Origin: an uncultured Oscillospiraceae bacterium | Lineage (GTDB): Bacteria; Bacillota; Clostridia; Oscillospirales; Oscillospiraceae | DNA length: 64,000 bases | Direction of reading: 5' to 3' | NCBI GenBank assembly: GCA_964386575.1 | Contig: CAYLSA010000002.1 | Location: forward strand, 22,209-86,208 | Shown here: positions 9,407 through 63,178 of the stretch, piece after piece | Layout: the number at the start of each line of letters is the position of its first letter | How positions within the stretch are numbered: position 1 is the first letter of the stretch | The notes under the pieces: model-generated | Seen by the model: only the letters and a program-made list of their open reading frames with translations | Told to the model about the DNA's origin: nothing | Databases searched by the model: none | Translations under genes and position numbers: made by a program

Positions 9407-9435
9407 ACATCCTTCTGTCTGATTTCGGGGAAATG

Positions 9436-9474
9436 AAAAAGGGGCGGTGCGAGCTTATCACGCCGCCCCAAAAA
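9436..9474. terminator. bidirectional terminator downstream of secreted protein A
   Basis: GGGGCGGTG...CACGCCGCCCC hairpin flanked by AAAAA on both sides (a T-run on the minus strand). Confidence 0.7.
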
Positions 9475-9488
9475 TATCGCTATGGCTT

Positions 9489-28407: not shown

Positions 28408-28413
28408 GCCTTG

Positions 28414-28442
28414 ATAATAACGGCCAGGGAAAGCTTTGTCAA
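28414..28442 (-). promoter_or_regulatory. promoter for the Cthe_2159-family gene
   Basis: Minus strand: TTGACA - 17 nt - TATTAT. The -35 hexamer overlaps the end of repeat element copy 2. Confidence 0.5.
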
Positions 28443-28566
28443 GCGCGTCGGCGCAAGCGCGTCGGCGCAAGCTTCGCTGTGACTCGCTTCGGCGTGAACG
28501 CCAAAGCTCGCCCGCTCCGCTGCGCCTCCTCTTCCAAACCGAATCGCTTCGCTGGATTCGATTTGG
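28441..28566 (-). repeat. structured intergenic element, copy 2 (inverted relative to copy 1)
   Basis: The reverse complement has the same order as copy 1: 12-bp hairpin (28534-28566), GGCGCAGCGGAGCG (28513-28526), the AGCTTTGGCGTTCACGCCGAAGCG hairpin (28485-28508), then AGCTTGCGCCGACGCG duplicated in tandem (14-nt unit x2 at 28441-28468). Confidence 0.8.
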
Positions 28567-28588
28567 ATACCTTGCCGACGCAAGCGCC

Positions 28589-28627
28589 AAAAAGAAACCG
28601 GCACAGCTCCTTGCGGAGCCGTGCCGG
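28589..28627 (-). terminator. rho-independent terminator after the peptide-binding protein gene
   Basis: Minus strand: CCGGCACGGCTCC-GCAA-GGAGCTGTGCCGG followed by TTTCTTTTT. Confidence 0.75.
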
Positions 28628-40536: not shown

Positions 40537-42768
40537 ATGAAGAAAACAACCAAGCTGTTTGCGCTCGTGACGGCATTTTGCATGCTGCTGTCGCTCGGCG
40601 CACTGGCCGCCTCCGGCGAGGCGGAAGAATACGACGTCAACGCCGCCCGTCAGGAAGCGTTCGGCATCGTGACGGCTTCCGGCGAGGCCTCGGCCTCCGA
40701 GGAGATCACCTATGACAACTATGTGGACGAGTCGGCGAGCTATGACCGCTTTGTCTTCGACGGCACCACCTACGGCGCGCATGACGGCTATCTCACCGTC
40801 ACGGTCGAGGGCGTGGAGGTCGATCCCTCGGCGCTCGACGGCGAATACAGCGATGTTGTGTTCACCGTGACCGGCCAGATCCCCGCCTTTGTGGACGGCT
40901 ACGCCTCCGCTTACCGCACCGCGCTGTATTACGATGCGGACGGCCTGAACGAGGATCTTTCCGTCACCGCCGCCGTGCTCGAGGGCGAGTATGACGACGA
41001 AGGCGCTTCCGATCTTTACATCGAGTCGCTGAACAAAAACTTCGAGGGCATCATCTTCGGCGGCGGCGAATACACCATCGACGGTTTGCGCATGGTGGCC
41101 GAGGGCAACGGCGCGAACGACTTTGCCGGCGTGGGTGCGGGCATCGCGGTCGGCGGCGATGCGACTGTCACCGTCAACGACTATGAGTTCATCGCCCACG
41201 GCATCATCCGCCACGGCGTGTTCGTCGGCGGCGACGATCTTCAGAACCCGGCCGAGCTGACCGTGAACAACGGTCTCATCCTCACGGGCAACCCCGTGGA
41301 CGAAAACGGCGAGGCCATGTATCAGCCGGAATCCGGTATGTCCATGTATGCCTCCCCCTGGATGCTTGGCATCGAGCCGACCGCCGAGGTGCGCTCGCAG
41401 CTGATGGCCTCCACCGGCATTGCCACCTATAACGACACCGTGATCGTGTCCTCCGGCTGGGGTGTTGTGTCCTCCGACGCAGTGGACGGCGGCGAACACT
41501 GGGGCGACTACACCATCCAGATGAATCTCAACGACTGCATCCTGGACTTCACCGGCAACTCCGGCTATGTGTCCTATGCCATTGGCGCCACGCATAACAC
41601 CTTCACCAACTGCATCATCGGCAACGCCATCGCCTCCGGCGCGCTGGACGATACCATTGAATATGTCAAGGACGAATACGACTACGATCTGGGCTATGAG
41701 TCCGACGTGGAGATCGACGCCGACGGCCGCGCCTACAACACCACCTATGCGCTCATCGTGGCGAACGAAACCTCCGGCGGCACCTTCGACAACTGCATCT
41801 ACACCGGCCAGTACGGCGTGATGTACCACAAGACCAACAACGTCTCCTATGTTCCCGGCGCGACCGACAACTCGTCCGATGAGCTGTTTGCCGACGGCAG
41901 CACCGAGATCCGCGACAGCGAGTTCTACACCAAGGGCGCGGCGCTGCTCGTGAAGGCCTGCACCCCCGTCATCAACGTGGAGAACACCAAGTTTGAGTCC
42001 GAGTCCGGCGTTATCGTGCAGCTTGCCACCTGCGATGACCCCGGTATGGGCAGCCGCTACTTCAGCGAAAAACTCGATCTGACCGCGCCGGTCGAGGCCG
42101 ACCCCGCGTACGATCCCTATGACTACAACACCAAAAACCAGACCATCTTCTCCTACAACGTCAAGAACATGATCAACGACGTTCAGGTCTCCTTCACCGA
42201 CTGCAACGGCGATACCGCGCTCAACGGCGATTTCTACAACTCCATCTCCGTTTCCACCACCGGCGAGGGCATGACCTGGTTTGGCCAGAACCTCATCCTG
42301 AACTTCTCCAACTGCGAGATCAACGGCAACGCCAGCTCCTCCTCCGCCCTGCATAACGCCTACACCGGCTACTACGATGCCGAGGGCAATGAAGTCGAGG
42401 CCGATTCTCTGGAAGAAGCCATCGAAAAGGGCGCCGTGGAAGGCCGCATCACCTCCGACAACGCCACCTATCTCGGCTGGATGACCAACACCATCTCCGC
42501 GCCCGTGAACAACGGCGTTTGGGTCTGCCTGTCGGACGGCTCCGTCTGGACGCCGAACAAGACCTGCTTCCTCACCGTTCTCGATGTGGAGGAAGGCTCC
42601 GTCATCAACGGCAACGTCACCATCGACGGTGAGATCGTGGACGTCACGGCCGGTGGCCACTGGACCGGCAACATCAAGGTCATGCCCGCCGGCGGCATCG
42701 ATGTTGTGGATATCGAAGGCGAAAGCTATGTCGCCCTCGACGCGCTGAAGGCGTTCCTCGGCCTGTAA
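40537..42768 (+). CDS. large secreted protein, paralog C; function unknown
   Basis: 743 aa. Signal peptide MKKTTKLFALVTAFCMLLSLGALA. Collinear with paralog B, and shares the C-terminal WxxxxxxxxLTVLDV motif. Confidence 0.75.
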   Translation: MKKTTKLFALVTAFCMLLSLGALAASGEAEEYDVNAARQEAFGIVTASGEASASEEITYDNYVDESASYDRFVFDGTTYGAHDGYLTVTVEGVEVDPSALDGEYSDVVFTVTGQIPAFVDGYASAYRTALYYDADGLNEDLSVTAAVLEGEYDDEGASDLYIESLNKNFEGIIFGGGEYTIDGLRMVAEGNGANDFAGVGAGIAVGGDATVTVNDYEFIAHGIIRHGVFVGGDDLQNPAELTVNNGLILTGNPVDENGEAMYQPESGMSMYASPWMLGIEPTAEVRSQLMASTGIATYNDTVIVSSGWGVVSSDAVDGGEHWGDYTIQMNLNDCILDFTGNSGYVSYAIGATHNTFTNCIIGNAIASGALDDTIEYVKDEYDYDLGYESDVEIDADGRAYNTTYALIVANETSGGTFDNCIYTGQYGVMYHKTNNVSYVPGATDNSSDELFADGSTEIRDSEFYTKGAALLVKACTPVINVENTKFESESGVIVQLATCDDPGMGSRYFSEKLDLTAPVEADPAYDPYDYNTKNQTIFSYNVKNMINDVQVSFTDCNGDTALNGDFYNSISVSTTGEGMTWFGQNLILNFSNCEINGNASSSSALHNAYTGYYDAEGNEVEADSLEEAIEKGAVEGRITSDNATYLGWMTNTISAPVNNGVWVCLSDGSVWTPNKTCFLTVLDVEEGSVINGNVTIDGEIVDVTAGGHWTGNIKVMPAGGIDVVDIEGESYVALDALKAFLGL

Positions 42769-46560: not shown

Positions 46561-46612
46561 GCGTTTCGGGGCTTTTTGAATGAAAAAACGGCAAAATTTA
46601 AGCAAAAACCCC

Positions 46613-46641
46613 TTGCAATCGGGCGGCGATGGTGTTATCAT
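46613..46641 (+). promoter_or_regulatory. promoter for the ACT-hom-lysC operon
   Basis: TTGCAA - 17 nt - TATCAT. Confidence 0.5.
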
Positions 46642-46684
46642 GTTCGCACGTTATGGACATTTAACCGCCACGGAGGGACAATCT

Positions 46685-47128
46685 ATGCCGGAAAACAACA
46701 AAAAATACTATCTTGTGGAGGGCAGCGCGCTGCCGGAGGTGTTCATCCGCGTCACGCAGGCGCGCGAGCTTTTGGACACGGGACGGGCCCAAACCGTTGC
46801 GGAGGCGGCGGCCATGGCCGGCATATCCCGCAGCGCGTATTATAAATACCGCGATACCGTTTTGCCGTTTCGCGATCTCGGCCGCGGCCGCATCGTCACA
46901 TTCCAGCTTCTTTTGGAGGATGTGGCGGGGATGCTCTCGGCGGTGCTGGCGCTGTTTTCAAGCCACGGCGCGAACATCCTGACCATCAACCAGTCCATCC
47001 CCTCCAACGGCACCGCGCCCGTCACCATCACGGCGGACACGGCTTCGCTGAATGTTTCCACGGAGGCGCTGCTTTCAAGCGTTTCGGCCTTGGAGGGCAT
47101 CATCAAGGCATCGGTTCTGGCGGGGTGA
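46685..47128 (+). CDS. UPF0735-type ACT domain protein (PheB-like)
   Basis: 147 aa. KKYYLVEGSALPEVFIRV, GISRSAYYKYRDTVLPF and a C-terminal ACT fold. Confidence 0.8.
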   Translation: MPENNKKYYLVEGSALPEVFIRVTQARELLDTGRAQTVAEAAAMAGISRSAYYKYRDTVLPFRDLGRGRIVTFQLLLEDVAGMLSAVLALFSSHGANILTINQSIPSNGTAPVTITADTASLNVSTEALLSSVSALEGIIKASVLAG

Positions 47129-48312
47129 GGCAGATGGAGAAAAAGAGATTTGCGGTTTTGGGCTATGGCACGGTGGGCAAGGCCGTTTGCCGCGTTTGGA
47201 GCGAGCTTTCGGACGCACCCTTGGCGCAGGGGCCGATCCTGGTGCGCCGGGCGCATGAGCCGGATGAATTTTCCGCGTTTATGACGGACGATTTCGCCGC
47301 CATCGAGGCCGATCCGAGCGTGGCCGTCGTGGCGGAGGTCATGGGCGGCACGGACGCGGCGTGGGAGTATTCCCGTCGGGCGCTGCTGGCCGGAAAAAGC
47401 GTGGTTTCGTCGAACAAGGCGCTCGCCGCCGAGCGCGGAGCCGAGCTTTGTGCGCTGGCGCATCGGATGGGCGTGAGTTATCGCTTCGAGGCAGCCGTTT
47501 GCGGCGGTATCCCGCTGCTCGCCCCGCTCACGGAATCGCTTGCATCCAACCGCGTGGACGAGCTGTGCGGCATTTTTAACGGCACCACGAACTATATCCT
47601 CACGGCCATGGAACGCGAGGGTGTTTCCTATGCCGAGGCCCTCTCCCGCGCGCAGGCGCTGGGCTATGCCGAGGCCGACCCCACCGCCGATGTGCAGGGG
47701 CATGACGCCGGACGCAAAACGGCGCTGCTCGGCTCGCTGGCGTTCGGAAGGCGCGTGCGCTTTGAAGATATGTCGGTTTCCGGCATCACGGAGATCACGC
47801 CGGCGGATCTGGAGCTGGCGGACGCGCTGGGCTACGGCGTGAAGCTGCTGGGCCGCACGGGACGCGGCGCGGCGGGGATCTATGCCTTTGTTGAGCCGCA
47901 TCTGGTGCCGAAGGGCGCGATGCTCGGCGCGGTGAGCGGCGTGATGAATGCCTGCGTCATTCAGGCCAGTGCCGCCGGAGAACTGATGTTCTATGGCCCC
48001 GGCGCGGGCGGACGAGCCACGGCCAGCGCCGTTTGCGCGGATATTCTGGCCGCCGCGCGGCATCCGGGCGACTGCATGGAACTTTCGGGCGAGGACGCGG
48101 CGCTGCTGCCGCCGGAGACGATCGAGTCGCGCTGGTATGTGCGTGCCGAGGCGCAGCCGGATGTGCTTTTGGCGGCCTTTCCCGAGGCCGAGCCGGTCTA
48201 TGGCTCCAGCGGCGCGTGCGCGTTTATCACGGGGCCGTGTTTGCCCTCGGCGCTGGCGGCGGGACTTGAGGCTGTGAAGGGCGCGGTCGCGTGGCGCGTT
48301 TGGCAGCCGTGA
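47125..48312 (+). CDS. hom: homoserine dehydrogenase
   Basis: NAD-binding FAVLGYGTVGKAV, catalytic-domain blocks GIFNGTTNYILT and ADPTADVQGHDAGRK. The start could instead be the ATG at 47134. Confidence 0.85.
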   Translation: MRQMEKKRFAVLGYGTVGKAVCRVWSELSDAPLAQGPILVRRAHEPDEFSAFMTDDFAAIEADPSVAVVAEVMGGTDAAWEYSRRALLAGKSVVSSNKALAAERGAELCALAHRMGVSYRFEAAVCGGIPLLAPLTESLASNRVDELCGIFNGTTNYILTAMEREGVSYAEALSRAQALGYAEADPTADVQGHDAGRKTALLGSLAFGRRVRFEDMSVSGITEITPADLELADALGYGVKLLGRTGRGAAGIYAFVEPHLVPKGAMLGAVSGVMNACVIQASAAGELMFYGPGAGGRATASAVCADILAAARHPGDCMELSGEDAALLPPETIESRWYVRAEAQPDVLLAAFPEAEPVYGSSGACAFITGPCLPSALAAGLEAVKGAVAWRVWQP

Positions 48313-48368
48313 ATAGAATGGAGTGGGCCGAGGGCCCATATATGAGCGAATAAGGGGAATCCATATAT

Positions 48369-49577
48369 ATGTTGATCGTACAAAAATTCGGCGGCTCCTC
48401 CGTGGCGGACACGAGCCGTATCAAAAATGTGGCCGCGATCATCGCGGAGACATACTTAGCCGGAAACGAGCTGGTGGTGGTCCTGTCCGCCCAGGGCGAC
48501 ACCACGGACGAGCTTTTGGAAAAGGCCGCGGAGCTGAACGCCTCGCCCTCGCGGCGGGAGCTGGATATGCTGCTTTCCACGGGCGAGCAGCAGTCCATCG
48601 CGCTGATGGCCATGTGTCTGGAGGCGATGGGACTGCCGGTCGTGTCGCTCACCGGATGGCAGGCCGGAATGCGAACGGACGCGGCCTATGGCGATGCGCG
48701 CATCCGACGCATCGACACGGAGCGCCTGCGGCGCGAGCTGGATATGAAGCGCATCGTGCTGGTGGCGGGCTTTCAGGGCATTACGAAATTCGACGATGTC
48801 ACAACGCTGGGCCGCGGCGGCTCCGATGCCACGGCGGTGGCGCTTGCGGCGGCGCTGCACGCCGATCGCTGCCAGATATTCACCGATGTCGAGGGCGTAT
48901 ACACCGCCGACCCGCGCAAGGTGCCGAACGCGCGCAAGCTTGAGGAGATCAGCTGCGACGAGATGCTGGAGCTGGCATCGATGGGGGCGCAGGTTTTGAT
49001 GAACCGCTCCGTGCAGCTGGCCAAGCGATACGGGGTGGAGCTGGAGGTTTTGTCCTCCACGGCGCGAAAGAGTGGAACGATAGTCAAGGAGGTCACGAAA
49101 GACATGGAAGAGATGAAGATCACCGGCATTGCCAAGGATGAAAAGGTCGCCCGCATCACGGTCGAGGGTCTGTCCGACACGCCGGGCGCGGCGTTTAAGG
49201 TGTTCGGGGCCATCGCCCGTCAGGGCGTGAACGTGGATGTTATCATTCAGGCCAACGGCCGCAACGGCCGCAACGATATGTCCTTCACCGTGGCCCAGGC
49301 GGACGCGGAAAAGGCGCGCGAGGCCGCCATGAGCAAGCAGAGCGTGCTGGGCTTTGAAAACGTGTCCATCGACCCGGATATCGCCAAGGTGAGCGTGGTG
49401 GGTGCGGGCATGATGTCCAACTCCGCCATCGCGGCGCTGGTGTTCGAGGCGCTCAACGATGAAAACATCAACATCCAGATGATCTCCACCAGCGAGATAA
49501 AGCTCTCCGTTATCCTCGCGCAGGGACAGGCCGACCGCGCCGTGGCGGCTATCCACCGCAAATTCTTCGAGAATTAA
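48369..49577 (+). CDS. lysC: aspartate kinase
   Basis: IVQKFGGSSV N-terminus, LGRGGSDATAVALA block, and two C-terminal ACT domains. Confidence 0.9.
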   Translation: MLIVQKFGGSSVADTSRIKNVAAIIAETYLAGNELVVVLSAQGDTTDELLEKAAELNASPSRRELDMLLSTGEQQSIALMAMCLEAMGLPVVSLTGWQAGMRTDAAYGDARIRRIDTERLRRELDMKRIVLVAGFQGITKFDDVTTLGRGGSDATAVALAAALHADRCQIFTDVEGVYTADPRKVPNARKLEEISCDEMLELASMGAQVLMNRSVQLAKRYGVELEVLSSTARKSGTIVKEVTKDMEEMKITGIAKDEKVARITVEGLSDTPGAAFKVFGAIARQGVNVDVIIQANGRNGRNDMSFTVAQADAEKAREAAMSKQSVLGFENVSIDPDIAKVSVVGAGMMSNSAIAALVFEALNDENINIQMISTSEIKLSVILAQGQADRAVAAIHRKFFEN

Positions 49578-49625
49578 AAATTGTAACTTTTTTAATTCTT
49601 CGACAAAATCCAACATCTTGTGCAT

Positions 49626-49667
49626 GGCATCCCAGACCGACACAATCGGCTGGGATGCCTGATTTTT
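49626..49667 (+). terminator. rho-independent terminator after lysC
   Basis: GGCATCCCAG...CTGGGATGCC (10-bp stem) followed by TGATTTTT. Confidence 0.8.
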
Positions 49668-49765
49668 CAAGGAAAATTTGTAGTTGACAAGATTTGCATA
49701 CTGTGTTACTTTGTTTCTATATCGTAACCGAATTGTAACTTTTATCACGCGCGAGGTGTCATATC

Positions 49766-52189
49766 ATGAGTCAATCCACCACCCTGTTCTCCGCGCTCAC
49801 GGCGGCCCAGCTTGCCGCGATGAACGCCGAGCAGATCGTGAAAATGGGGCGCGAACTCGTCTCCCAACTGGACAGTTGTCCGGAGGATTTCCACGGCAAC
49901 ATCTGGCCCGGCAGTATTCATTTTAATGAGGACGGAAAGGCTGTTTTGTGCTCCCGCAGCGATGCACCGGTGTCCGAGCGCACGCCCGAGCAGATCGAGT
50001 ATATGGCGCCGGAGGCGTTTTGGGAAAACCGCTTCAGCCGCAGCGCCGATCTTTACAGCATCGCCCTTGTGATGTACACCGCCTACAACGGCGGTCATTT
50101 GCCGTTTATCACCTCGTCGGAACCGACGGATGTGGAACGTGCCCAAGCCCTGCGCACGCGCATGAAGGGCGGCGAGATCGTTCCGCCGGCGGGCGCGAGC
50201 GAGGCCGTGGCCGCGATCTTGCGCCGCGCACTCTGCTACAGTCCCGATGAGCGCTATCTCACGCCGCAGGCCATGCTGCACGATCTGGGCGAGACGGATG
50301 AGTCGCTGCCCTCCGAAGCGCCGGACGATGAGCAGGCGGCCGATCCCGAAGCGGCGGCGGCTGCGGCGGCGACCGGCATGGCCGGCGTGTCCGTGGTGGC
50401 AGAGCTGGCGGCCATTCCGAAGGAGAGCGTGCGCCCCGTGGAGGCGGAGGCGGGCGTGAGCGCAAGCAGCATTTTGCTGGAAAAAGAACTGCATGATCTG
50501 GATGAGCCCGCGGCCAAGAGCGCAAAGCCTGCATCGGAACCGCTGCGCGAGATCTTCACCGAAGCGGCAGAGCCGGAACCGGCAGCGCCCGAGGTGCAGG
50601 CCGAGCCCGAGGCGGAAACGCCGGTGATGGAGGAGCCCGCGGCGGAGGAAGCGCCGCAGGCCGAGCCCGTGGCGGAAGAACCCAAGCCCGCCAAAAAGCC
50701 GCAGCCCGAGAAAAAGTCGCAACCGGTATCGCAGATGGGCGGCAAAAAGAAGAAAAAGAACAAGACCGCGCCCAAGCCGGTCGAGGGCATCGTGGACATC
50801 CCCGCCGCGCCGGTCGAGACAAAGCCCGCTGAGGAAATAAAGCCCCTTGAGCCGAAGGCGCCGGAGAAAAAGCCGGTGTCTACGGCCAAAACAACCCCCA
50901 AGGCAACACCCAAGAGCGCACCTAAGAAGCAATACACCGTTCAAAAGGACATCGACCGCCGTCAGGAGGCGGCCGTGCGCCGCAAAAACCGCAGCGGTGC
51001 GGCCATCGCTATCGGCGTTGGCGTGGTGGTCATCGCAGGATTGATCACCGTGGCGGCGTATTCGCTGGGCGCATTCGAAAAGGAAGCGCCCGTGGCGCTC
51101 GTGACGGCATCTCCGGCCGCCGAGGCTACAGCGCAGCCCACCGAAGCGCCTACGCCTGTGCCCGAACAACCCAGCTATCGCTTCACGGCCACGGCCGTCG
51201 GCTTTGACTGGGATGAGCTGAAAAATGTCGGACTGGCTGTGCTGGAAAGCGAGGAGGCGTTTGATGCGGCCGTGGCCGCGGCCGAGAAGGCCGGACTTGA
51301 AAACGCATGGCTTGGCGCGCGCTATCTCGAAGCGGACGATGCACCGAACGGCGAGGCCGGCTGGTACTGGCTGGACGGCACGCAGCTTCCCGAAAACAGC
51401 GCCTTCTGGGCCGAGGGCGAGCCTTCGGCATCGGCCGGCGGACGGTTGATGATGCGCCGCGCGCCGGATAAGAGCTGGCGGTTTTATTCCGTGACGCGCG
51501 AGCAATTTGACGATAGCGAGTTCGAACGGCTCGGCTGCATCACGGACGGCAGCGGCATGGCGGCCATCCCCAGCCCGACACCCGAACCCACGGCGGAGCC
51601 CACGCCCGAGCCCACGGAAGAGCCGAGCGGCAACGCCAATTCCTACACCTACTATGCGCCGGTATCGGCGGCCACGGCGGCCCCGACCAGCGTTCCCACG
51701 ACCGTTCCGACCGCGGTGCCTACTGCAGCGCCGACGGCCGTACCCACCGCCGTGCCCACGGCGGAGCCCACGCCCACGCCCGCGACAGAGAAATATAGTG
51801 TGGCCAGCAAGGGCAAATCGTGGACGGATGCCAACGCGGCCGGCTCGATGGCGATCGTGAGCAGCGCCGAGGACTTCACGGCCATCACGCAATTCCTTAA
51901 TGACTACAACACTACGCATACGGATGCGCCGGTGAAGAATGTGTGGCTCGGGGCCGAATACAAGGCGGCCGAGGGCGAGAAGGTTGCCGGTTGGTACTGG
52001 TCGAATGGCGCGGTGCTTTCGACGAGTGACTCTAACTGGGCCGCCGGTGAAGCTTCCAAGACCGCGGGCTGCAAGCTGATGCTGCGTCTGGTGGACGGCA
52101 CGTGGAAGTACTACGCCGTGACGGATGCGGAGTTTACCGCTGACAGCACGACCTATGCCAACACCGCCGCGCTCGCACCCAAGAGCTGA
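49766..52189 (+). CDS. single-pass membrane protein: N-terminal truncated pseudokinase (C-lobe only), long P/E/A/K-rich linker, TM helix, two C-type-lectin-like extracytoplasmic repeats
   Basis: HGNIWPGSI in place of HRDxKPxN, and CSRS in place of DFG, but YMAPE, ADLYSIALVMY and SPDERY are retained. TM segment AAIAIGVGVVVIAGLITVAAYSL. Repeats carry WLGA...GWYW(L/S)(D/N)G...(F/N)WA(E/A)GE(P/A)S. Confidence 0.7.
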   Translation: MSQSTTLFSALTAAQLAAMNAEQIVKMGRELVSQLDSCPEDFHGNIWPGSIHFNEDGKAVLCSRSDAPVSERTPEQIEYMAPEAFWENRFSRSADLYSIALVMYTAYNGGHLPFITSSEPTDVERAQALRTRMKGGEIVPPAGASEAVAAILRRALCYSPDERYLTPQAMLHDLGETDESLPSEAPDDEQAADPEAAAAAAATGMAGVSVVAELAAIPKESVRPVEAEAGVSASSILLEKELHDLDEPAAKSAKPASEPLREIFTEAAEPEPAAPEVQAEPEAETPVMEEPAAEEAPQAEPVAEEPKPAKKPQPEKKSQPVSQMGGKKKKKNKTAPKPVEGIVDIPAAPVETKPAEEIKPLEPKAPEKKPVSTAKTTPKATPKSAPKKQYTVQKDIDRRQEAAVRRKNRSGAAIAIGVGVVVIAGLITVAAYSLGAFEKEAPVALVTASPAAEATAQPTEAPTPVPEQPSYRFTATAVGFDWDELKNVGLAVLESEEAFDAAVAAAEKAGLENAWLGARYLEADDAPNGEAGWYWLDGTQLPENSAFWAEGEPSASAGGRLMMRRAPDKSWRFYSVTREQFDDSEFERLGCITDGSGMAAIPSPTPEPTAEPTPEPTEEPSGNANSYTYYAPVSAATAAPTSVPTTVPTAVPTAAPTAVPTAVPTAEPTPTPATEKYSVASKGKSWTDANAAGSMAIVSSAEDFTAITQFLNDYNTTHTDAPVKNVWLGAEYKAAEGEKVAGWYWSNGAVLSTSDSNWAAGEASKTAGCKLMLRLVDGTWKYYAVTDAEFTADSTTYANTAALAPKS

Positions 52190-52205
52190 GCAATGAAAAA
52201 ATCAA

Positions 52206-52236
52206 CAGGCGCCGAAACTCTCGGCGCCTGTGTTTT
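52206..52236 (+). terminator. rho-independent terminator
   Basis: CAGGCGCCGA-AACTC-TCGGCGCCTG followed by TGTTTT. Confidence 0.75.
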
Positions 52237-52347
52237 GCCCGTAAAGAATTTTTCCGCTTTTGTTCATGCATTTGTCACAAGTGTGAGATACTATAAGCAT
52301 GACGGCATCGGAGAGCGATGCCAGTATGAAAGCAGGGAGGCAGCATT

Positions 52348-53832
52348 ATGAACGAAATGAACGAAAACAAGATGCCGGATCCCGAACAGGACTCTACCGG
52401 CTATTTCCGCCCGGAGGAAAAGCGCGAGGATTACAGCGATGCGGCTTTTTCGCCCGTGAGCGAGGAAAACGCGGGCTATGTTTACAGCCCCGGCCATAGT
52501 TGCTCGGCCGTGGGGATGCCCGAAACGAAGGAAAAAAAGCGTATGTCCGTGGGGGCGATCGTGGCGATCTGCGTGGTTTGCGCGCTGGTGGCCTGCGCGC
52601 TCGGCGTGGGCGGTACGCTTCTGATGACCCGCCAGGACGACAGCGCCGTGCTTCCCACGGTGGTCGAGGAGCAAGAGGACAGCGTCAAGCAAAACACGGT
52701 AAAGCCCGTGCTTGTCACCAGTTCCACGCTCGACTCCAGCGTGATGTCCGCCGAGGACATTTACGAAATGGCCTGCGAGCAGGTCGTCGGCGTGACCACG
52801 GAGATCACAGCCTATAACATCTTCGGCCAGCAGGTCAGCGGCGTGGTTTCCGGCACCGGCTTCATCATCACGGACGACGGCTACATCCTCACAAACTACC
52901 ACGTCATCGAAGAAGCCTACGAAGGCGGCTATGACATCGCCGTGCTCACGCACGACGGCACGGAATACGCCGCAGAGGTCGTGGGTGTGGAAAGCGAGAA
53001 CGATCTGGCGGTTCTGAAGATCGACGCGGTGGGCCTTAACGCCGTGACGCTCGGCGACTCCAACGAGATGAAGGTCGGCCAGACCATCTATACTGTCGGC
53101 AATCCGCTCGGCGAGCTGGATTACACCATGACCACCGGCATCGTGTCCGCCATGGACCGCAGCATCCGCACCGACTCGAACACCTCCGTGAATATGTTCC
53201 AGATCGACGCGGCGGTCAACTCCGGCAACTCCGGCGGCCCGATCTATAACGTTTACGGCCAGGTCATCGGCATCGTAACGGCCAAATACAGTTCCACCGG
53301 CGTGGAGGGCCTTGGCTTCGGCATCCCCATTTCCGATGCGCACTACATCGCCAATGAGCTCATCACGAACGGCTATGTGTCCGGCAAGGCCTATATGGGC
53401 ATCACGGTCGGTACCGTGTCGTCCAGCGCGGCGCGGTATTATAACATGGTCGAGGGCGCGATGGTCCAGAGCGTGACCGAGGGCGGCTGCGCCGAGGCGG
53501 CCGGCTTGCAGCCCGGCGACATCATCACCGCCGTTGGCGAGACCGAGATCACCAGCCAAAGCGAACTGATCTCCGCCATCCGCAAGTATCACGCCGGCGA
53601 CACTGCGCAGCTCACGGTGTTCCGTGCGCAGGAATATCTGACCTTCACCATCACCTTCGACGAGGCGCTGCCCGAGGAGGAAACGACCGAGGAGAACGGC
53701 GCTGTGCAGGACGAGGACGGCAACTACTCCGCCTCCGGCGAGATGGGCCCCGGCCGGTATTACGAATACCACGGCAACGTCGATCCCGGCGATCTGGAGG
53801 ACTTCTTCGGCAGTTTCTTCGGCCGCGGCTGA
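52348..53832 (+). CDS. htrA: membrane-anchored HtrA/DegP-family serine protease with PDZ domain
   Basis: TM anchor. Catalytic triad contexts TNYHVI, DLAVLKI and GNSGGP. C-terminal PDZ domain (GLQPGDIITAVG). Confidence 0.85.
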   Translation: MNEMNENKMPDPEQDSTGYFRPEEKREDYSDAAFSPVSEENAGYVYSPGHSCSAVGMPETKEKKRMSVGAIVAICVVCALVACALGVGGTLLMTRQDDSAVLPTVVEEQEDSVKQNTVKPVLVTSSTLDSSVMSAEDIYEMACEQVVGVTTEITAYNIFGQQVSGVVSGTGFIITDDGYILTNYHVIEEAYEGGYDIAVLTHDGTEYAAEVVGVESENDLAVLKIDAVGLNAVTLGDSNEMKVGQTIYTVGNPLGELDYTMTTGIVSAMDRSIRTDSNTSVNMFQIDAAVNSGNSGGPIYNVYGQVIGIVTAKYSSTGVEGLGFGIPISDAHYIANELITNGYVSGKAYMGITVGTVSSSAARYYNMVEGAMVQSVTEGGCAEAAGLQPGDIITAVGETEITSQSELISAIRKYHAGDTAQLTVFRAQEYLTFTITFDEALPEEETTEENGAVQDEDGNYSASGEMGPGRYYEYHGNVDPGDLEDFFGSFFGRG

Positions 53833-55790: not shown

Positions 55791-56663
55791 ATGGAATGGC
55801 AGCAGCTAGAGTATTTTTGTGAAACAGCTAAAATGGAGCATATCACCCGCGCGGCGGAAAAGCTTCATATATCCCAGCCGTCTCTGAGCACGGCGATCCG
55901 GCGTTTGGAGCTTGAGCTGGGTGTGCGGCTTTTTGACCGGCAGGGACGGAACATAAAGCTCAATCGCTATGGCGAGGCGTTCCTGGCCAAGGTGGAGCCG
56001 GCGCTGAAGCTGCTGGAGGATGGGCGGCAGGAGCTGCGTGCAATGGCCTCGGACGCGGAAAACCGCATTATGATATCTACGCCGTCGCTGTATTCCGACC
56101 CCGCCATCATGAAGCACCTGCTGACCCAGCACCCCAATCTGGTCATTAACCAGATCTATGTCACGGAAGCAACGCTGGTACAGATGCTGAAAAACAACAA
56201 GCTCGATTTCTGTGTGACATCGCTGGAGCTGAACGATGAGCAGGTCAACTGCGAGAATCTGCGCAGCGAGAACATGATGCTTCTGGTCAGCGGCGAGCAT
56301 CCCTTGGCCGAGCGAACGGTGGTTCGCCTGGCGGATTGCCGGAACGAGCTGTTTATAACCGATATTGCCGGCAGCGCTTATCGAAAGAATCTGGAACGCT
56401 GCTGCCGGGCGGCTGGCTTTGTGCCGAAGTGTGCCTATGAAGGCGCCGGAATCCGCGATGTCATGGAGGCTGTGTCGCAGGGGATATGCGTGGCTATGGT
56501 TCCCGAACCGGCGCTGGCGACCAATACGGCATCGGATGTTCGGGGGATACGGATCGTGGATCCGTCGTACTCCATCACACTGAAAATGTATTGGCCTAAA
56601 AACAAGGTGGAGCGGAGGGTGGTCTCCTCTGTTCGCCAGATCATTATGGAACATTTCCGCTGA
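55791..56663 (+). CDS. LysR family transcriptional regulator
   Basis: HTH: MEWQQLEYFCETAKMEHITRAAEKLHISQPSLSTAIRRLELELGVRLFDR. Confidence 0.85.
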   Translation: MEWQQLEYFCETAKMEHITRAAEKLHISQPSLSTAIRRLELELGVRLFDRQGRNIKLNRYGEAFLAKVEPALKLLEDGRQELRAMASDAENRIMISTPSLYSDPAIMKHLLTQHPNLVINQIYVTEATLVQMLKNNKLDFCVTSLELNDEQVNCENLRSENMMLLVSGEHPLAERTVVRLADCRNELFITDIAGSAYRKNLERCCRAAGFVPKCAYEGAGIRDVMEAVSQGICVAMVPEPALATNTASDVRGIRIVDPSYSITLKMYWPKNKVERRVVSSVRQIIMEHFR

Positions 56664-56691
56664 GGAAGCTCTAACGGAAAACGATCTTGAG

Positions 56692-56718
56692 CCCGTCCGC
56701 TCCTGCGGACGGGTTTTT
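56692..56718 (+). terminator. rho-independent terminator after the LysR gene
   Basis: CCCGTCCGC-TCCT-GCGGACGGG followed by TTTTT. Confidence 0.8.
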
Positions 56719-56785
56719 ATATGTTACAGGCTATGAATTTTGGGGCTCATAGCTAACACCGAATAGATACGCAATAATTAGATAT

Positions 56786-56813
56786 TTGACAAACAAAGAT
56801 ACTCCGTTAATAT
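56786..56813 (+). promoter_or_regulatory. promoter for the TRASH / flavoprotein / ABC operon
   Basis: TTGACA - 16 nt - TAATAT in an AT-rich intergenic region. Confidence 0.45.
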
Positions 56814-56860
56814 AAAAGTAAACCTGAAAGTACAAATCGAAAAGAGAGGTGTCAGCAGCC

Positions 56861-57055
56861 ATGGAAGGATTTTGTCATTATTGCGGACGGCCCATAAAAG
56901 GGGAGCCGGAGATCATCGTTCGCCGCGGCAAAAAGAAGGTTTACTGCTCGGACTTTTGCTTTAAGCTTGATTTTTACGATGCGCCGGTGATCACCTATGA
57001 GGCGCTGAAGGATATGTACAGGCAGCGCTGCATTGAAGTGTGGCTGGACGATTGA
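56861..57055 (+). CDS. stand-alone TRASH / zf-FCS-like metal-binding mini-protein (64 aa)
   Basis: C-x2-C-x20-C-x3-C spacing (CHYC...YCSDFC). An alternative GTG start lies at 56849. Confidence 0.55.
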   Translation: MEGFCHYCGRPIKGEPEIIVRRGKKKVYCSDFCFKLDFYDAPVITYEALKDMYRQRCIEVWLDD

Positions 57056-57073
57056 ATTAGGGGGGATTAACAG

Positions 57074-58870
57074 GTGGTTAAAAATATGGAAGAACTGGCG
57101 GATCGGATCCTTGAAACCGATTTTCTGATCATCGGCGGCGGCCTCGTTGGCTGTATGGCAGCGCTGCGGGCGAAAAAGAACGATCCCAAGATCGATGTGA
57201 CCATTATCGACAAGGCGAAAATGGAATACGCCGGAGACGGAGTTGGTCTGGATAACTTCAACATGGTCCCGCTGCATAAGGAGGATATGTACAAAGACTA
57301 TAGCGAGGAGGATGCCAGCAAAGCAACGTTCGGCGCGAACCGTCTGCATGGACTGGTAAATCCCCGCTTGGATGCCGTTTCAATGCGCAATGCCTATATC
57401 TCCCTTCCGTTGCTGGAGGAGGTTGGTGTTCGGGTGCGCGAGGATGACGGCGCTCTCTACATCCTTCAGGCTTATCGCCGCGGTGTGAACTGGGGCCGTG
57501 TTGAGTATGACGAAAACGGCCAGCCCTGTGAGCCCCGCTTTGGCTCGCTTTCGCGCGGCTCGGATCTGAAGCAGCGGCTGGGCGCCGCGGTTCGGGCCAA
57601 TGGGACCCATGTTCTCGATCGAACGATGGTAACGAGTGTTGTGACGAACGATGGCGTGGCGGTGGGCGCTACGGCAATCAATACGCGAACGAACGAATTT
57701 GTGTTCATTAAGGCAAAAACTGTGCTCATCAGCACTGGACAGGTGGCGCGGCTGTATCCCTACCAGTGGGCGCCGTATCCCAACAATCTGTTTTACTCCG
57801 TGGCATCGCCGGTGAACCACGGCGGCGGCCACATTGCGGCACTGAATGCTGGGGCGAAGCTGGTAACGATGGATATGTGCAATGTATACAACGTTACGAA
57901 GGGCGTGAACCACAGCAGCGGCGGTGGCGGCTGCAACTGGTTTTTCCGCATGTATAACTCCAAAGGTGAATCGCTGGAGGACAAGTATCCGGAAAGAATG
58001 GTCACAAAGATCGGCGGCACCATTCCCGGCGTGAACTATCTGTTTGGGCCGGGCATTGAGGACGCCGAGGTGCTGAAGGATGTGATACTGTCCTATAAGG
58101 ACAAGGCAGAGCCGGACACGGTGAACGCGGTTTATTTCACGGCGGCGACCGAGCCGACAAGAGCACTGAAGTTCCATAAGCTTGCCGGCGGGCTCACCAA
58201 TGAAAAGCCGAGCGAATGTGTTCATGTTTTCACGGGTCTTACGCAGGCGGGTAACGGCATCCTGCGCGAAAACGAGGTGTCCGAGACCGGTGTGAAGAAT
58301 CTGTTCGCGGCTGGTGCCTGCGTGGGCGCGGGCGGATCGGCTGGCTTCACATGGGCTTGCTTGGTGGCGGATCGGGTGTCGGACATTATTAAGAACATCC
58401 CTGCGCCGACCATTGGCGACGAACAGCTTCAGCAGGTGGCGGCAACAAAGCAGTGGGTCTATGCGCCCTATAAGCGGGAAGGCGGCTATGCCGTGGACCC
58501 GCTGGAGATGGAGGACTACGTCCGGCGTATCAACATGGATTATGTGGGCCTGTTCAAATATACTTCGAAGATGGAGCGGGGGCTTGAGCTTCTTAACCGC
58601 GTGAAGGAGAACGCTGTGCCGCAGCTTACGGCGAACACGCCGCACGAGCTGATGCGCGCGATCGAGGCACAGCAGATTTTGGAGATATCCCAAATGCACA
58701 TCCAGTCTTCTCTGATGCGAACAGAAAGCCGTCTTGTGCCTGTGCACTACCGTGTGGAGTATCCCGAACGGGATCCGAAGTGGGAAAACATGGTGATCCA
58801 GTGCGCCAAAGCGGATGGGCGGACGAAATACGAGATCGTAAAACTGAGCGAAACTGTAAAGGATATGTGA
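57074..58870 (+). CDS. FAD-dependent oxidoreductase, APS-reductase alpha (AprA) / fumarate-reductase flavoprotein-like
   Basis: Dinucleotide fold DFLIIGGGLVGCMAALRA...IIDKAKMEYAGDGVGLDNFN, AprA-like. About 595 aa. C-terminal helical capping region. The start could instead be the ATG at 57086. Confidence 0.65.
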   Translation: MVKNMEELADRILETDFLIIGGGLVGCMAALRAKKNDPKIDVTIIDKAKMEYAGDGVGLDNFNMVPLHKEDMYKDYSEEDASKATFGANRLHGLVNPRLDAVSMRNAYISLPLLEEVGVRVREDDGALYILQAYRRGVNWGRVEYDENGQPCEPRFGSLSRGSDLKQRLGAAVRANGTHVLDRTMVTSVVTNDGVAVGATAINTRTNEFVFIKAKTVLISTGQVARLYPYQWAPYPNNLFYSVASPVNHGGGHIAALNAGAKLVTMDMCNVYNVTKGVNHSSGGGGCNWFFRMYNSKGESLEDKYPERMVTKIGGTIPGVNYLFGPGIEDAEVLKDVILSYKDKAEPDTVNAVYFTAATEPTRALKFHKLAGGLTNEKPSECVHVFTGLTQAGNGILRENEVSETGVKNLFAAGACVGAGGSAGFTWACLVADRVSDIIKNIPAPTIGDEQLQQVAATKQWVYAPYKREGGYAVDPLEMEDYVRRINMDYVGLFKYTSKMERGLELLNRVKENAVPQLTANTPHELMRAIEAQQILEISQMHIQSSLMRTESRLVPVHYRVEYPERDPKWENMVIQCAKADGRTKYEIVKLSETVKDM

Positions 58871-58882
58871 TGGTGACTGCCG

Positions 58883-59164
58883 ATGTTTAATATGAAAGTA
58901 AACTACGGGCCGAAGGTAGATGCGGCCAGATGCACGGGCTGCGGCAAGTGCTACGATATGTGTCCTATGGATGTGTTCGGCTATGATGAAAGCACCCATA
59001 CGCTGACGGTAGACTATGCGGCGGAATGTCAGATGTGCTGCTATTGCGAGACGGTGTGTCCGGAGGTGGCCATTGATGTTCAGTTCCCGCTGGGACATCT
59101 GATCGATTTTGGCATAGAGCCGGACAAGATCACGCAGCGCAGTCGTTTTCTGGAGGAAGATTGA
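58883..59164 (+). CDS. 2x[4Fe-4S] ferredoxin-type small subunit (AprB-like partner)
   Basis: CTGCGKCYDMCP and CQMCCYCETVCP motifs. Lies 12 nt downstream of the flavoprotein gene. Confidence 0.75.
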   Translation: MFNMKVNYGPKVDAARCTGCGKCYDMCPMDVFGYDESTHTLTVDYAAECQMCCYCETVCPEVAIDVQFPLGHLIDFGIEPDKITQRSRFLEED

Positions 59165-59228
59165 GGCAAACCTGCCGCCTGCCTGCCAACCATAGAGCAG
59201 CTGCGGCGGCAAGAGAAAGGAACTTTCT

Positions 59229-60206
59229 ATGGTAAAGTACATTATCAAACGCTTGTTTATGATGATTGCTGTCACGCTGGGCGTCATGCTGTTTGTGTTC
59301 TTTTTCCAGTCGGTCTCACCGGACGATCCCACGGCGGCGATCCTAGGCGAAGGCGCCACGGACGAGCAGCGAATGGCGCTGCGGGCGGAACTTGGATTGG
59401 ATGATCCTGTGATCGTGCAGTTTGCGCGCTATGTGTGGAATTTCGTGACAAAGGGCGATTTGGGAACATCCTATAAATCCAATCTGCCGGTCATGGATGA
59501 GCTGCTTTCACGCTTTCCTGTTACCTTTGAGCTTGCGATTGGATCGGTGCTTTTGGGCGTGATCATTGGCGTTCCGTTAGGCGTTTTATCGGCTGTCAAG
59601 GAATACTCTGTTTTTGACAGCGTGATCCTCGCGTTTTCCGTTTTTGCGCGTTCCATGCCGACGTTCTGGCTGGGCCTTATTATGATCTCGCTGTTCTCCG
59701 TTAAGCTCGGGTGGCTGCCAAGCTATGGCATTATGAGCTGGAAAGGCTGGATCATGCCAACGATCGTGGTGTGTGTGGCAACGATGTCCAGTCTGGTGCG
59801 AACGACCCGCTCGAGTATGCTGGAGGTGATCCGGCAGGATTATATCCGCACGGCTCGCGCCAAGGGGCAAACGGAAAAGAAGATTATCATCCGCCACGCG
59901 CTGCGCAACTCCATGATCCCCATTGTCAACACGATCGGCAACACGATGGGTATTCAGCTTGGCGGTGCACTGGTGATCGAGTCGGTGTTCGGCATGCCCG
60001 GCATAGGGAAGTATGCCGTGGACGCGATATCCGCGAGAAATTACCCGGCTGTGACCGGCAGCGTGGTGTTTTTGGCCATCGTGTTTTCGGTTGTGAATCT
60101 GATTGTCGATATCAGTTACACGGCGATCGATCCGAGGCTGCGTTCGTCCATCATCGGAGAGAGTCGGAAAAAAAGCAGACGGGCGCGCGCCGCGCAGGAG
60201 GGATGA
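59229..60206 (+). CDS. peptide-type ABC transporter permease (OppB/DppB-like)
   Basis: MVKYIIKRLFMMIAVTL N-terminus. EAA loop DYIRTARAKGQTEKKIIIRHALRNS. Confidence 0.85.
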   Translation: MVKYIIKRLFMMIAVTLGVMLFVFFFQSVSPDDPTAAILGEGATDEQRMALRAELGLDDPVIVQFARYVWNFVTKGDLGTSYKSNLPVMDELLSRFPVTFELAIGSVLLGVIIGVPLGVLSAVKEYSVFDSVILAFSVFARSMPTFWLGLIMISLFSVKLGWLPSYGIMSWKGWIMPTIVVCVATMSSLVRTTRSSMLEVIRQDYIRTARAKGQTEKKIIIRHALRNSMIPIVNTIGNTMGIQLGGALVIESVFGMPGIGKYAVDAISARNYPAVTGSVVFLAIVFSVVNLIVDISYTAIDPRLRSSIIGESRKKSRRARAAQEG

Positions 60207-60209
60207 AGC

Positions 60210-61121
60210 ATGGCAAAACGAATGACCCCTGCAATGGAGCGCATAAACAAAGCCAATACTACCCGCAGTGGACGGCAGAAGGAATTTACCTTTACCCGTG
60301 ATGCGTGGATGCGCTTCAAGCGAAACAAAACGGCTGTGATCGGGCTCGTTATGATCGTTATCATCCTGCTCGTGGCGGCTTTCGCGCCATGGCTTTGCCC
60401 TTATGATTACACGGAAACGGACTATCTGGCGGCCAACCAGAAGCCCAGTGCGGAGCACTGGTTCGGAACGGACAATCTTGGCCGCGACCTGTTCAGCCGC
60501 TGCATCTACGGCACAAGGATCTCGGTTCCCTTGGGCATCATATGCATGGTGTTCGGCTGCTTGACTGGTGGCTTTTTGGGCATGGTGGCTGCTTATTTTG
60601 CCGGTGCGACAGATAATATCATCATGCGCATTATGGATGTTTTGCAGGCGATTCCCGGCACGCTGCTTGCTATCGTGGTCATTGCCACGCTCGGAAACGG
60701 AACGACGCAGCTAGTCATCGCGTTGCTTATCAGCTCCATGCCGATGATGGCAAAAACTTTCCGTGCGGCGATTTTCACGGTGCGCAGCGCGGATTACATG
60801 GAATCCTGCCGCTCCATCGGCGCGGGGAATATGCGCCTTATGATCCATCACGCGCTTCCTAATGCGCTGGGCCACATCATCATTTTTGCCGTCAGCAGCA
60901 TACCCAGCACCATCATGATCATCACCAGTCTGAGTTATATCGGGCTTGGCATCCAGCCGCCGGCACCTGAATGGGGCGCGCTGCTGTCCGCCGGGAAAAA
61001 CTACTTCATGTCGTATGGCTACATGGTTTTGTATCCCGGACTGATGATCATGTTTACGGTTTTGGCCTTCAATCTTTTCGGCGACGGTCTGCGCGATGCG
61101 CTTGACCCGCGGCTTAAGTAA
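60210..61121 (+). CDS. peptide-type ABC transporter permease (OppC/DppC-like)
   Basis: HWFGTDNLGRDLFSR motif. EAA loop SCRSIGAGNMRLMIHHALPN. Confidence 0.85.
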   Translation: MAKRMTPAMERINKANTTRSGRQKEFTFTRDAWMRFKRNKTAVIGLVMIVIILLVAAFAPWLCPYDYTETDYLAANQKPSAEHWFGTDNLGRDLFSRCIYGTRISVPLGIICMVFGCLTGGFLGMVAAYFAGATDNIIMRIMDVLQAIPGTLLAIVVIATLGNGTTQLVIALLISSMPMMAKTFRAAIFTVRSADYMESCRSIGAGNMRLMIHHALPNALGHIIIFAVSSIPSTIMIITSLSYIGLGIQPPAPEWGALLSAGKNYFMSYGYMVLYPGLMIMFTVLAFNLFGDGLRDALDPRLK

Positions 61122-61138
61122 CACCGGGAGGAGAAAGC

Positions 61139-63162: not shown

Positions 63163-63178
63163 AAACAGGAGGAAAACA

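Follow-up and report, generated by a model that had tools for sequence, protein, structure and literature searches.

The KIND domain is a kinase C-lobe without an N-lobe that is non-catalytic and serves as a protein-protein interaction module (PMC3415841, PMC11231147); it has no αG helix, and a formin peptide fills that place (PMC3415841). Bacterial Ser/Thr pseudokinase families that have been described comprise ActPs1-3 (including MviN/MurJ), GLW, CP1, DYD and DLHK (10.1101/2025.01.12.632604; PMC12599244). CD2148 of C. difficile, which shows no autophosphorylation, is an in vitro substrate of PrkC and modulates the phosphorylation that depends on this kinase (PMC9674922). Here, we describe a gene located at 49766..52189 of the plus strand of a 64,000-nt stretch of DNA from an uncultured Oscillospiraceae bacterium (GCA_964386575.1, contig CAYLSA010000002.1, positions 22,209-86,208, forward strand); this whole stretch is referred to below as the window. 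The 807-aa product of the gene combines a kinase C-lobe that lacks an N-lobe with a linker, a single transmembrane (TM) helix and two C-type-lectin-like domains (CTLDs). An identical protein, P0001, is held in a public NCBI assembly. The parts of the gene are as follows.

49766..52189 (+): whole gene, N-lobe-less pseudokinase, linker, TM helix and two CTLDs (open reading frame (ORF) listing, 807 aa)
49802..50293 (+): kinase C-lobe-only domain, aa ~13-176, helices αD/αE to αI (Pfam, PDB, AlphaFold2 (AF2), Foldseek and a kinase hidden Markov model (HMM))
49892..49918 (+): degenerate catalytic loop HGNIWPGSI in place of HRDxKPxN, aa 43-51 (alignments)
49952..49960 (+): SRS at the DFG-equivalent position, aa 63-65, without the metal-binding Asp (alignment with active relatives)
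50000..50023 (+): P+1/APE segment YMAPEAFW, in which APE is kept and followed by a family-specific FW (family-wide conservation)
50129..50170 (+): predicted αG helix DVERAQALRTRMKG, aa 122-135, motif R..A(L)R.RM(K)G (AF2, conservation, PknB alignment)
50294..50995 (+): Ala/Glu/Pro/Lys-rich cytoplasmic linker, aa 177-410, ~235 aa (composition)
50933..50950 (+): juxtamembrane motif YTVQKD, aa 390-395 (family motif count)
50999..51073 (+): single TM helix, aa ~412-436 (hydropathy)
51173..51556 (+): CTLD 1, aa ~470-597, with WLGA, GWYWLDG and GEPS and without the E[ND] and ND Ca2+ ligands (profiles, alignments)
51557..51784 (+): Pro/Thr-rich linker between the two CTLDs, aa 598-673 (Pfam PT repeat, which passes its gathering score with E 7e-7)
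51785..52165 (+): CTLD 2, aa ~674-800, with WLGA, GWYWSNG and GEAS (EPN equivalent lost) and a single Cys, C769 (AF2, Foldseek, profile)

The kinase C-lobe and its missing N-lobe

An earlier reading of the window, made without database searches (the sequence-only reading), had proposed a truncated pseudokinase at this locus, and both the ORF and the kinase motifs it named were found exactly where they were expected: besides the catalytic loop, these are YMAPE (aa 79-83), ADLYSIALVMY (aa 94-104) and SPDERY (aa 159-164). Only 42 residues are N-terminal to the catalytic-loop His. The DFG position had been read as CSRS. This sequence is present at aa 62-65, but alignment to the nearest active kinases, which carry KLG-DFG, makes S63-R64-S65 the strict equivalent and places C62 one residue earlier. 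The region reads KLGDFG in active relatives, VLCSRS in the window protein and VLGEGS in most orthologs.

Every search that assigned a fold to this domain matched the C-lobe alone, as the sequence-only reading had supposed. Pfam Pkinase (PF00069) aligned aa 77-173 with positions 161-261 of its 263-position profile (E 1.8e-6; 28.0 bits against a gathering cut-off of 31.7), and PK_Tyr_Ser-Thr (PF07714) scored 26.4 bits against a cut-off of 23.1. The best sequence match among solved structures was the C-lobe of M. tuberculosis PknB (residues 183-309, E 3e-4), and no NCBIfam family came near its own cut-off for the 807-aa protein. On a 320-position kinase HMM built from 11 full-length relatives, the domain occupied positions 128-312, starting at the hinge/αD. 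The AF2 model of aa 1-185 had a mean predicted local distance difference test (pLDDT) score of 90.9, and Foldseek matched it to at least 1995 kinase structures over ~180 aligned columns. TM-scores were ~0.7 when computed on the query and ~0.5 on the targets of roughly 265-285 residues, which is the pattern expected of a C-lobe.

Within the C-lobe, an alignment of 15 family members revealed invariant core positions, i.e., E83 of APE, D95 of αF and R163 of the αH-αI region. The AF2 model contains a helix at aa 122-133, in the segment aligned to αG of PknB, and there R125, A128, L129, R130, R132, M133, K134 and G135 are invariant in the same alignment. The region that would carry the Gly-rich loop, the β3 VAIK lysine and the αC glutamate is missing from the protein. 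Lacking the ATP-binding lobe as well as the catalytic and the metal-binding Asp, the protein is no conventional kinase; judged from its sequence and model, it is predicted to be unable to bind ATP normally or to transfer phosphate. The earlier statement that it can no longer phosphorylate is thus well supported by the loss of the N-lobe and of the HRD and DFG aspartates, and we consider the non-catalytic architecture close to certain.

The presence of only the C-terminal half of a kinase, with a Pkinase match below the gathering threshold, could also be read as an artefact or a decaying gene, that is, a kinase truncated by a frameshift, an assembly error or a recent deletion. The DNA upstream of the gene speaks against this and contains the following features.

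46580..49577 (+): syntenic block of an ACT-domain protein, homoserine dehydrogenase (hom) and aspartokinase (lysC) (Pfam)
~49626..49668 (+): terminator-like hairpin of lysC, GGCATCCCAGACCG...CGGCTGGGATGCC, followed by TGATTTTTC with a T-run (read from the sequence)
49753..49758 (+): Shine-Dalgarno-like GAGGTG, 7 nt ahead of the ATG at 49766 (sequence)

The lysC stop lies at 49577, and 188 nt separate lysC from the ATG. An N-lobe exon in this gap is impossible, because the gap is filled by the terminator and the Shine-Dalgarno sequence and has stops in every frame. The GC content across 49450-49749 is 0.44. A hidden or frameshifted N-lobe was therefore rejected as a candidate: three-frame translation of the upstream DNA gave the 3′ end of lysC, the terminator and stops throughout, with no coding capacity. 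The start of the protein, MSQSTT..., is conserved in 9 orthologs, and orthologs from independent assemblies share an identical start. A frameshifted N-lobe had already been judged unlikely, and this was borne out. The truncation is ancestral to a large family.

Family, selection and ectodomains

A word-indexed search found only 20 relatives of the 807-aa protein. An exhaustive HMM search over 1.84 billion cluster representatives (50%-identity clusters) retrieved 123 representatives at E<1e-30, and ~110 of the best 150 have an N-lobe-less start, in that their kinase-like domain lies at residues 1-25; one TM helix comes after it. The catalytic loop consensus of the family is HG[GN][IV][WR]P[GD]N[IV], and the DFG position, preceded by a conserved LG, reads x-x-S; hence, the degeneration at the HGN and CSRS positions, for which a survey of homologs had been suggested, is shared family-wide together with the loss of the DFG Asp. 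Where members have names in public databases, these are "hypothetical protein".

In an alignment of 112 members, conservation peaked at the catalytic loop (3.0 bits), P+1/APE-FW (3.2), αF (3.1) and αG (3.0). The P, E, F and W of the APE-FW segment and the αG residues R, A, R, M and G (R124/A127/R131/M132/G134, in a numbering one below that of P0001) are each at least 90% conserved. The catalytic loop, P+1/APE, αF and αG form the face of a kinase used for substrate and partner binding.

Several members (P0099, P0114, P0126, P0069 and P0109) carry N-terminal extensions of 50-150 residues, which were considered as relic N-lobes and rejected: they are acidic and of low complexity, and their alignments to the kinase HMM still begin at its position ~132-140. 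The nearest full-length kinases, with HRDIKPxNI and KLGDFG, obtained lower scores and have other ectodomains, e.g., leucine-rich repeats, InlB repeats, tetratricopeptide repeats or dockerin.

A pattern scan of a one-genome-per-species collection located 145 loci, nearly all in metagenome-assembled genomes of uncultured gut Oscillospiraceae/Clostridiales from human, rabbit, deer, chicken, sheep and horse. The closest of these loci is 91% identical in the N-domain. Loci L010, L039, L040, L044, L052, L054 and L086 are titled Alloprevotella, Collinsella, Bacteroidaceae, Hallerella, E. coli and Phascolarctobacterium; in gene content they agree with the Oscillospiraceae loci, and all come from one "cleanbin" submission series. 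These titles probably reflect mis-binning and are not evidence for a wide taxonomic range.

The ratio of nonsynonymous to synonymous substitution rates (dN/dS) of the C-lobe was 0.09 relative to the closest ortholog (dS 0.54) and 0.15-0.24 relative to other orthologs. Across the linker, the TM helix with CTLD 1, the Pro/Thr linker and CTLD 2, it ranged from 0.13 to 0.43, with 0.26-0.41 for the linker and 0.20-0.33 for the CTLD-containing regions. Purifying selection thus acts across the whole gene and is strongest on the C-lobe. Both the 145 loci in the one-genome-per-species collection and dN/dS values well below 1 add to the upstream evidence against an artefact or a decaying gene, a reading that the data refute. 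The N-lobe-less proteins are a sizeable, recurrent and unannotated family.

The linker that follows the C-lobe has the Pro/Glu/Ala/Lys-rich composition given in the sequence-only reading, although it is ~235 aa long and not ~290 aa. It contains islands conserved in orthologs, ETDExLPS and GVSASSILxEKEL. The pattern Y-x-[VIL]-x-[KR]-[DSNE], to which YTVQKD belongs, is present in 47 of 95 members at a distance of ~25 aa from the TM helix, on its N-terminal side, compared with 0.6 expected from shuffles. A single TM helix had been proposed and is predicted by hydropathy (Kyte-Doolittle maximum 2.63 over 19 aa). The Arg/Lys cluster RRQEAAVRRKNRS on its N-terminal side indicates a predicted N-in/C-out topology, as judged by hydropathy and the positive-inside rule only.

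The two extracytoplasmic repeats share 34% identity (pairwise E 1e-20). When a profile of 17 repeats was compared with the PDB, 57 of 59 matches were C-type lectin domains, the best being CLEC4C (2e-4) and DCIR (2.8e-4). CTLD 2 was modeled by AF2 with a pLDDT of 95, and its top 47 Foldseek matches in the PDB, which include MBP-1, MCL, DCIR, TC14, CD23 and CD69, are all CTLDs. Pfam Lectin_C (PF00059) matched 6 of the 17 subfamily repeats, and a Pfam scan of the window's own repeat 2 gave no match. Since Pfam is weak on the window repeats, the fold call needed the PDB profile search, AF2/Foldseek and the wider family; these agree on the fold that had been recognized by eye. The core motifs WLGA and GWYWLDG are invariant.

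The canonical binding features of this fold are distributed unevenly. A full Ca2+/sugar site is present in none of 24 subfamily CTLDs, as opposed to 36 of 60 CTLDs in more distant relatives, which keep EP[SNT]..E[ND]..W-x-x-ND and, in alignment, show an EPS variant as in DCIR. Of the canonical ligands, CTLD 1 of the window protein retains EPS only, and CTLD 2 has EAS. The C1 cysteine is likewise found in none of the 24 subfamily CTLDs; in the 60 distant domains, C1 and C4 are found in 25 and C2 in 2, and the C2-C3 pair is nearly always missing. The repeats had been called cysteine-less, which is correct as far as disulfides are concerned, yet each has one unpaired Cys, C769 in CTLD 2 and C591, at the canonical C4 position, in CTLD 1. 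By these sequence comparisons, the CTLD disulfide and Ca2+/sugar site that many relatives retain have been lost in the window subfamily. The window protein is thus degenerate on both sides of the membrane: inside it is a pseudokinase, and outside, judged by canonical criteria, a pseudo-lectin.

A Pfam census of the ectodomains of 77 N-lobe-less members revealed Lectin_C in 44 (best 2e-12) and the bacterial SH3 domain SH3_3 in 31. Orthologs with bacterial SH3 (SH3b) repeats, e.g., P0016 and P0020, occupy the same position between hom-lysC and htrA as the window gene. The same locus with SH3b instead of CTLD implies that the ectodomain type was swapped on a conserved cytoplasmic module. Of the glycan or envelope sensing that had been suggested for the protein, the glycan part is not established, as the Ca2+/sugar ligands are lost; the envelope part fits better, because the positional orthologs carry bacterial SH3 wall-binding repeats.

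Proposed function and genomic setting

Relatives in which C-lobe-only modules are joined to an intact kinase provide a clue to function. P0027 (locus L088 234-3377) consists of an intact kinase (HRDIKP, DFG), three back-to-back C-lobe-only modules (aa 305-485, 486-675 and 676-865), each beginning at the hinge/αD boundary as in the window protein, and a C-terminal DUF285 region. An intact kinase is followed by two such modules in P0046 and by one in P0060, and the modules of all three proteins have degenerate catalytic loops. Arrays of this kind, with kinase half-domains in tandem, may be worth studying for themselves. By Rosetta-stone logic, these fusions suggest that C-lobe-only modules of this clade work with an active kinase.

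Separately, the giant proteins P0056 (2911 aa), P0120 (2573 aa), P0145 (6172 aa), P0128 and P0141 contain 4-10 weak C-lobe matches extending from APE to αI. These proteins may be of eukaryotic origin or come from another phylum, and the matches score too low to serve as evidence.

From the conserved substrate-binding face and the fusions to active kinases, we infer a docking role for the C-lobe. The reading that we prefer, with a confidence slightly above even, is that the 807-aa protein is a non-catalytic single-pass receptor or adaptor that combines a C-lobe docking module with a wall- or glycopolymer-binding ectodomain. The C-lobe derives from a Clostridial Hanks-kinase clade through complete loss of the N-lobe and of the catalytic and metal-binding aspartates, and would function in protein docking, much as the eukaryotic KIND domain does. 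Its partner in trans might be an active Hanks kinase from the parent clade, for which it would be a pseudosubstrate, a heterodimer partner or a scaffold, in the same relationship that is hard-wired in cis in fusions such as P0027; alternatively, it might bind substrates of the parent-clade kinase. The long disordered linker, with its conserved islands, and the YTVQKD motif may add docking sites. Outside the cell, the two CTLDs on their Pro/Thr stalks would sit in or on the cell wall, where binding of a cell-wall or surface glycopolymer would position or gate the cytoplasmic docking module. Because the Ca2+/sugar site and the disulfide are lost in the subfamily, any ligand binding must be non-canonical. 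For the docking mechanism taken by itself, we see the chances as balanced.

Several observations weigh against this proposal. The pseudo-activation segment reaches 2.1 bits family-wide, with SDAPVSxR conserved within the subfamily only, and since the segment is not conserved family-wide, no universal phospho-site is proposed. The AF2 models rest on shallow alignments of 15 (C-lobe) and 17 (CTLD) sequences, and the Foldseek scores of CTLD 2 are modest (E 2e-3 and weaker, TM 0.5-0.6). With no canonical ligand site in the CTLDs of the window protein, ligand binding by them is conjecture. The fused kinase domains are called "active" from their motifs only. Finally, no other Hanks kinase is encoded in the 64-kb window, where the HMM of 11 full-length relatives matches only this ORF, and in none of 87 loci does an ORF for an N-lobe-bearing kinase adjoin the family gene. 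Pfam scans of 24 window proteins likewise detected no other kinase, no PP2C and no FHA; the proteins identified belong to amino-acid biosynthesis, tRNA synthetase, ABC/Opp transport and redox functions.

The lack of a partner kinase in the window or beside the 87 loci would be accounted for if the protein were purely a surface anchor or adhesin, directed at host mucin, dietary glycans or the cell's own wall, with the C-lobe as a stable folded plug that does not signal. The ectodomains are of an adhesin or wall-binding type, and Pro/Thr stalks are typical of Gram-positive surface proteins. Such a protein would, however, hardly require the C-lobe to be its most constrained part (dN/dS of 0.09 as compared with 0.2-0.3 for the CTLDs), nor near-invariant residues on the former substrate-binding face across the 112 members. 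It is the ectodomain type that is swapped while the C-lobe stays, and relatives in which a hydropathy scan detected no TM helix also have C-lobe-only modules, joined to active kinases. We thus regard a purely adhesive role as improbable and retain the docking receptor as our preferred reading.

The DNA downstream of the gene bears on a second alternative and contains two features.

52205..52237 (+): terminator-like GC-rich hairpin ACAGGCGCCGAAACTCTCGGCGCCTGT, followed by GTTTTG, between the gene and htrA (sequence)
52348..53832 (+): htrA-type serine protease (Trypsin_2 2e-36, PDZ_2 8e-15) (Pfam)

That an htrA protease gene follows the pseudokinase gene, as previously noted, is correct, but the link is weaker than was implied, as it holds in the closest subfamily only. 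There, the block of ACT protein-hom-lysC-gene-htrA is conserved, and of the 17 loci whose downstream DNA extends far enough, 15 have htrA directly after the gene in the same orientation, despite the switch from CTLD to SH3b and differing outer flanks. This constancy would fit a receptor that partners HtrA, sensing envelope or secretion stress through its ectodomain and regulating or recruiting the neighboring protease. In L010, which encodes a 54%-identical ortholog, the gene that takes the place of htrA (8663-9925, plus strand) codes for a PrsA/parvulin-like lipoprotein (YGYHIILR), assigned by eye; it is another secretion-folding factor, and PrsA/parvulin-like proteins and HtrA are both extracytoplasmic factors of protein folding or quality control. 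Set against this are the 158-nt gap between the genes and the hairpin with GTTTTG that lies within it; since these elements intervene, separate transcription units are suggested, and the two genes are probably carried on separate transcripts. In addition, the block always includes hom-lysC too, which is better explained by inheritance of the gene order than by a functional link, and htrA is found nearby in none of more than 55 loci of the wider family. The neighborhoods of distant members are unrelated, e.g., a guaB/mnmA/mnmG/thiamine-pyrophosphokinase group or a BMP-type ABC transporter group. An htrA operon was accordingly rejected: although the two genes do adjoin in the subfamily, they are separated by a terminator-like hairpin, and the wider family does not have the link. 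At most, the inherited gene order provides a weak functional hint, and we consider a partnership with HtrA unlikely.

Other observations concern neighboring genes. In the L035-L048 group, whose family proteins of ~450-475 aa have a single CTLD and form a distant subfamily, a gene for a ~162-aa lipoprotein (~5413-5908, plus strand; cluster c13) is located directly upstream of the family gene (~5992) in 11 loci and may encode a functional partner. In the window, a 743-aa ORF at 40537-42768 (+), with a GC content at third codon positions (GC3) of 0.85, which is a good sign of coding, has no Pfam match at 1e-5 and may be a conserved unknown protein; a 745-aa ORF of similar size, also with no Pfam matches, adjoins proS in L001 and L002. 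From ~55791 to 64000 (+), GC3 is 0.63-0.70, as compared with 0.78-0.88 for most other window genes. The genes of this segment include those for a LysR regulator, a FAD-binding fumarate-reductase-like protein and an Opp/Dpp-type ABC transporter, and from ~55.8 kb to the end of the window it may have been acquired horizontally. A 672-aa protein encoded at 26569-28590 (-) has three matches to the Cthe_2159 carbohydrate-binding family (E 7e-50) and adjoins a family-5 solute-binding protein; it is probably part of a glycan-uptake locus.

Comparison with known systems

The overall plan of the window protein is that of the PASTA receptor kinases (PknB/PrkC/Stk1), in which a cytoplasmic kinase fold is likewise connected through a juxtamembrane linker and one TM helix to repeated wall-binding ectodomains. 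Unlike them, it lacks the N-lobe, the catalytic residues and PASTA repeats and has CTLDs, or in relatives SH3b, instead. The NCBIfam model PknB_PASTA_kin (NF033483) scored 26.8 against a cut-off of 450, matching the C-lobe only, and a Pfam scan of the window protein gave no PASTA match. CD2148, a second, degenerate Hanks-like membrane protein without PASTA, provides a precedent in Clostridia for a catalytically doubtful partner of a real kinase. In CD2148, by contrast, the kinase domain is full-length (KD, aa 1-278) and comprises Hanks subdomains I-XI.

The bacterial pseudokinase families listed above resemble the window domain in being Hanks-derived with degraded VAIK, HRD and DFG, and several are membrane-associated with a TM helix C-terminal to the kinase-like domain (10.1101/2025.01.12.632604; PMC12599244). 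They differ in that they are described with both lobes (e.g., the back-to-back N-lobe dimer of MviN) and mainly from Actinobacteria, Proteobacteria and Cyanobacteria. The descriptions consulted give other motifs (e.g., GLW for HRD), taxa and domain partners, and N-lobe loss is mentioned in none of them. In text searches, neither the kinome Atlas nor the 2025 pseudokinase review gave a match to lectin, SH3 or truncation, and Clostridia are not mentioned in the review. Cataloguing of bacterial pseudokinases has only recently begun. The current bacterial classification, with 42 families of which seven are pseudokinase families, starts from full kinase-domain matches, and nothing like the N-lobe-less family was found in the accessible parts of it. 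A literature search for N-lobe-less bacterial kinases or Oscillospiraceae lectin receptors, with subscription journals outside its scope, found no prior description. The combination that the sequence-only reading did not recognize is not unique to this genome but belongs to a recurrent family, which is unannotated.

For the ectodomain, the animal CLEC4 group (DCIR/CLEC4A, BDCA-2/CLEC4C and MCL) provides the best sequence and structure matches to the repeats. WLGA corresponds to WIGL and WYWLDG to WxWxDG, EPS is as in DCIR, and the C1-C4 cysteines are retained by distant relatives, as are the Ca2+ ligands E[ND] and ND. The window protein differs from this group in having no disulfides and in the loss of 4 of 5 Ca2+-site ligands, and it is bacterial, with tandem domains on Pro/Thr stalks.

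In bacteria, a kinase C-lobe can persist alone under strong selection, as part of receptors whose wall- or glycan-binding ectodomains are of two interchangeable types; the lineage concerned, the Oscillospiraceae, is a major one of the gut and is largely uncultured. The family offers a handle on kinase C-lobes as docking modules, with natural fusions that hint at the partner, and on the ligands of bacterial animal-type CTLDs, many of which have an apparently intact EPS/ND Ca2+ site. It also matters for annotation, as its proteins are currently "hypothetical" or mis-scored as kinase fragments. The value lies mainly in the family and in the kinase-fusion clue rather than in the single window gene.

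The closest functional and structural concept remains KIND, since the window domain is likewise a kinase C-lobe without the N-lobe and catalytic residues. In contrast to KIND, it has a predicted αG, which is among its most conserved elements. KIND is, moreover, eukaryotic (holozoan) and cytosolic, whereas the window protein is bacterial and membrane-anchored and has an ectodomain. The Pfam KIND model was not among the matches of the window protein at E<=1, and the nearest relatives are bacterial Hanks kinases; the origin is therefore independent and the resemblance convergent. Tentatively, and with somewhat less than even confidence, we suggest that these C-lobe receptors of gut Clostridia may be the first prokaryotic counterpart of KIND, reading the wall or glycans outside and recruiting, sequestering or presenting substrates to a separate Hanks kinase inside.

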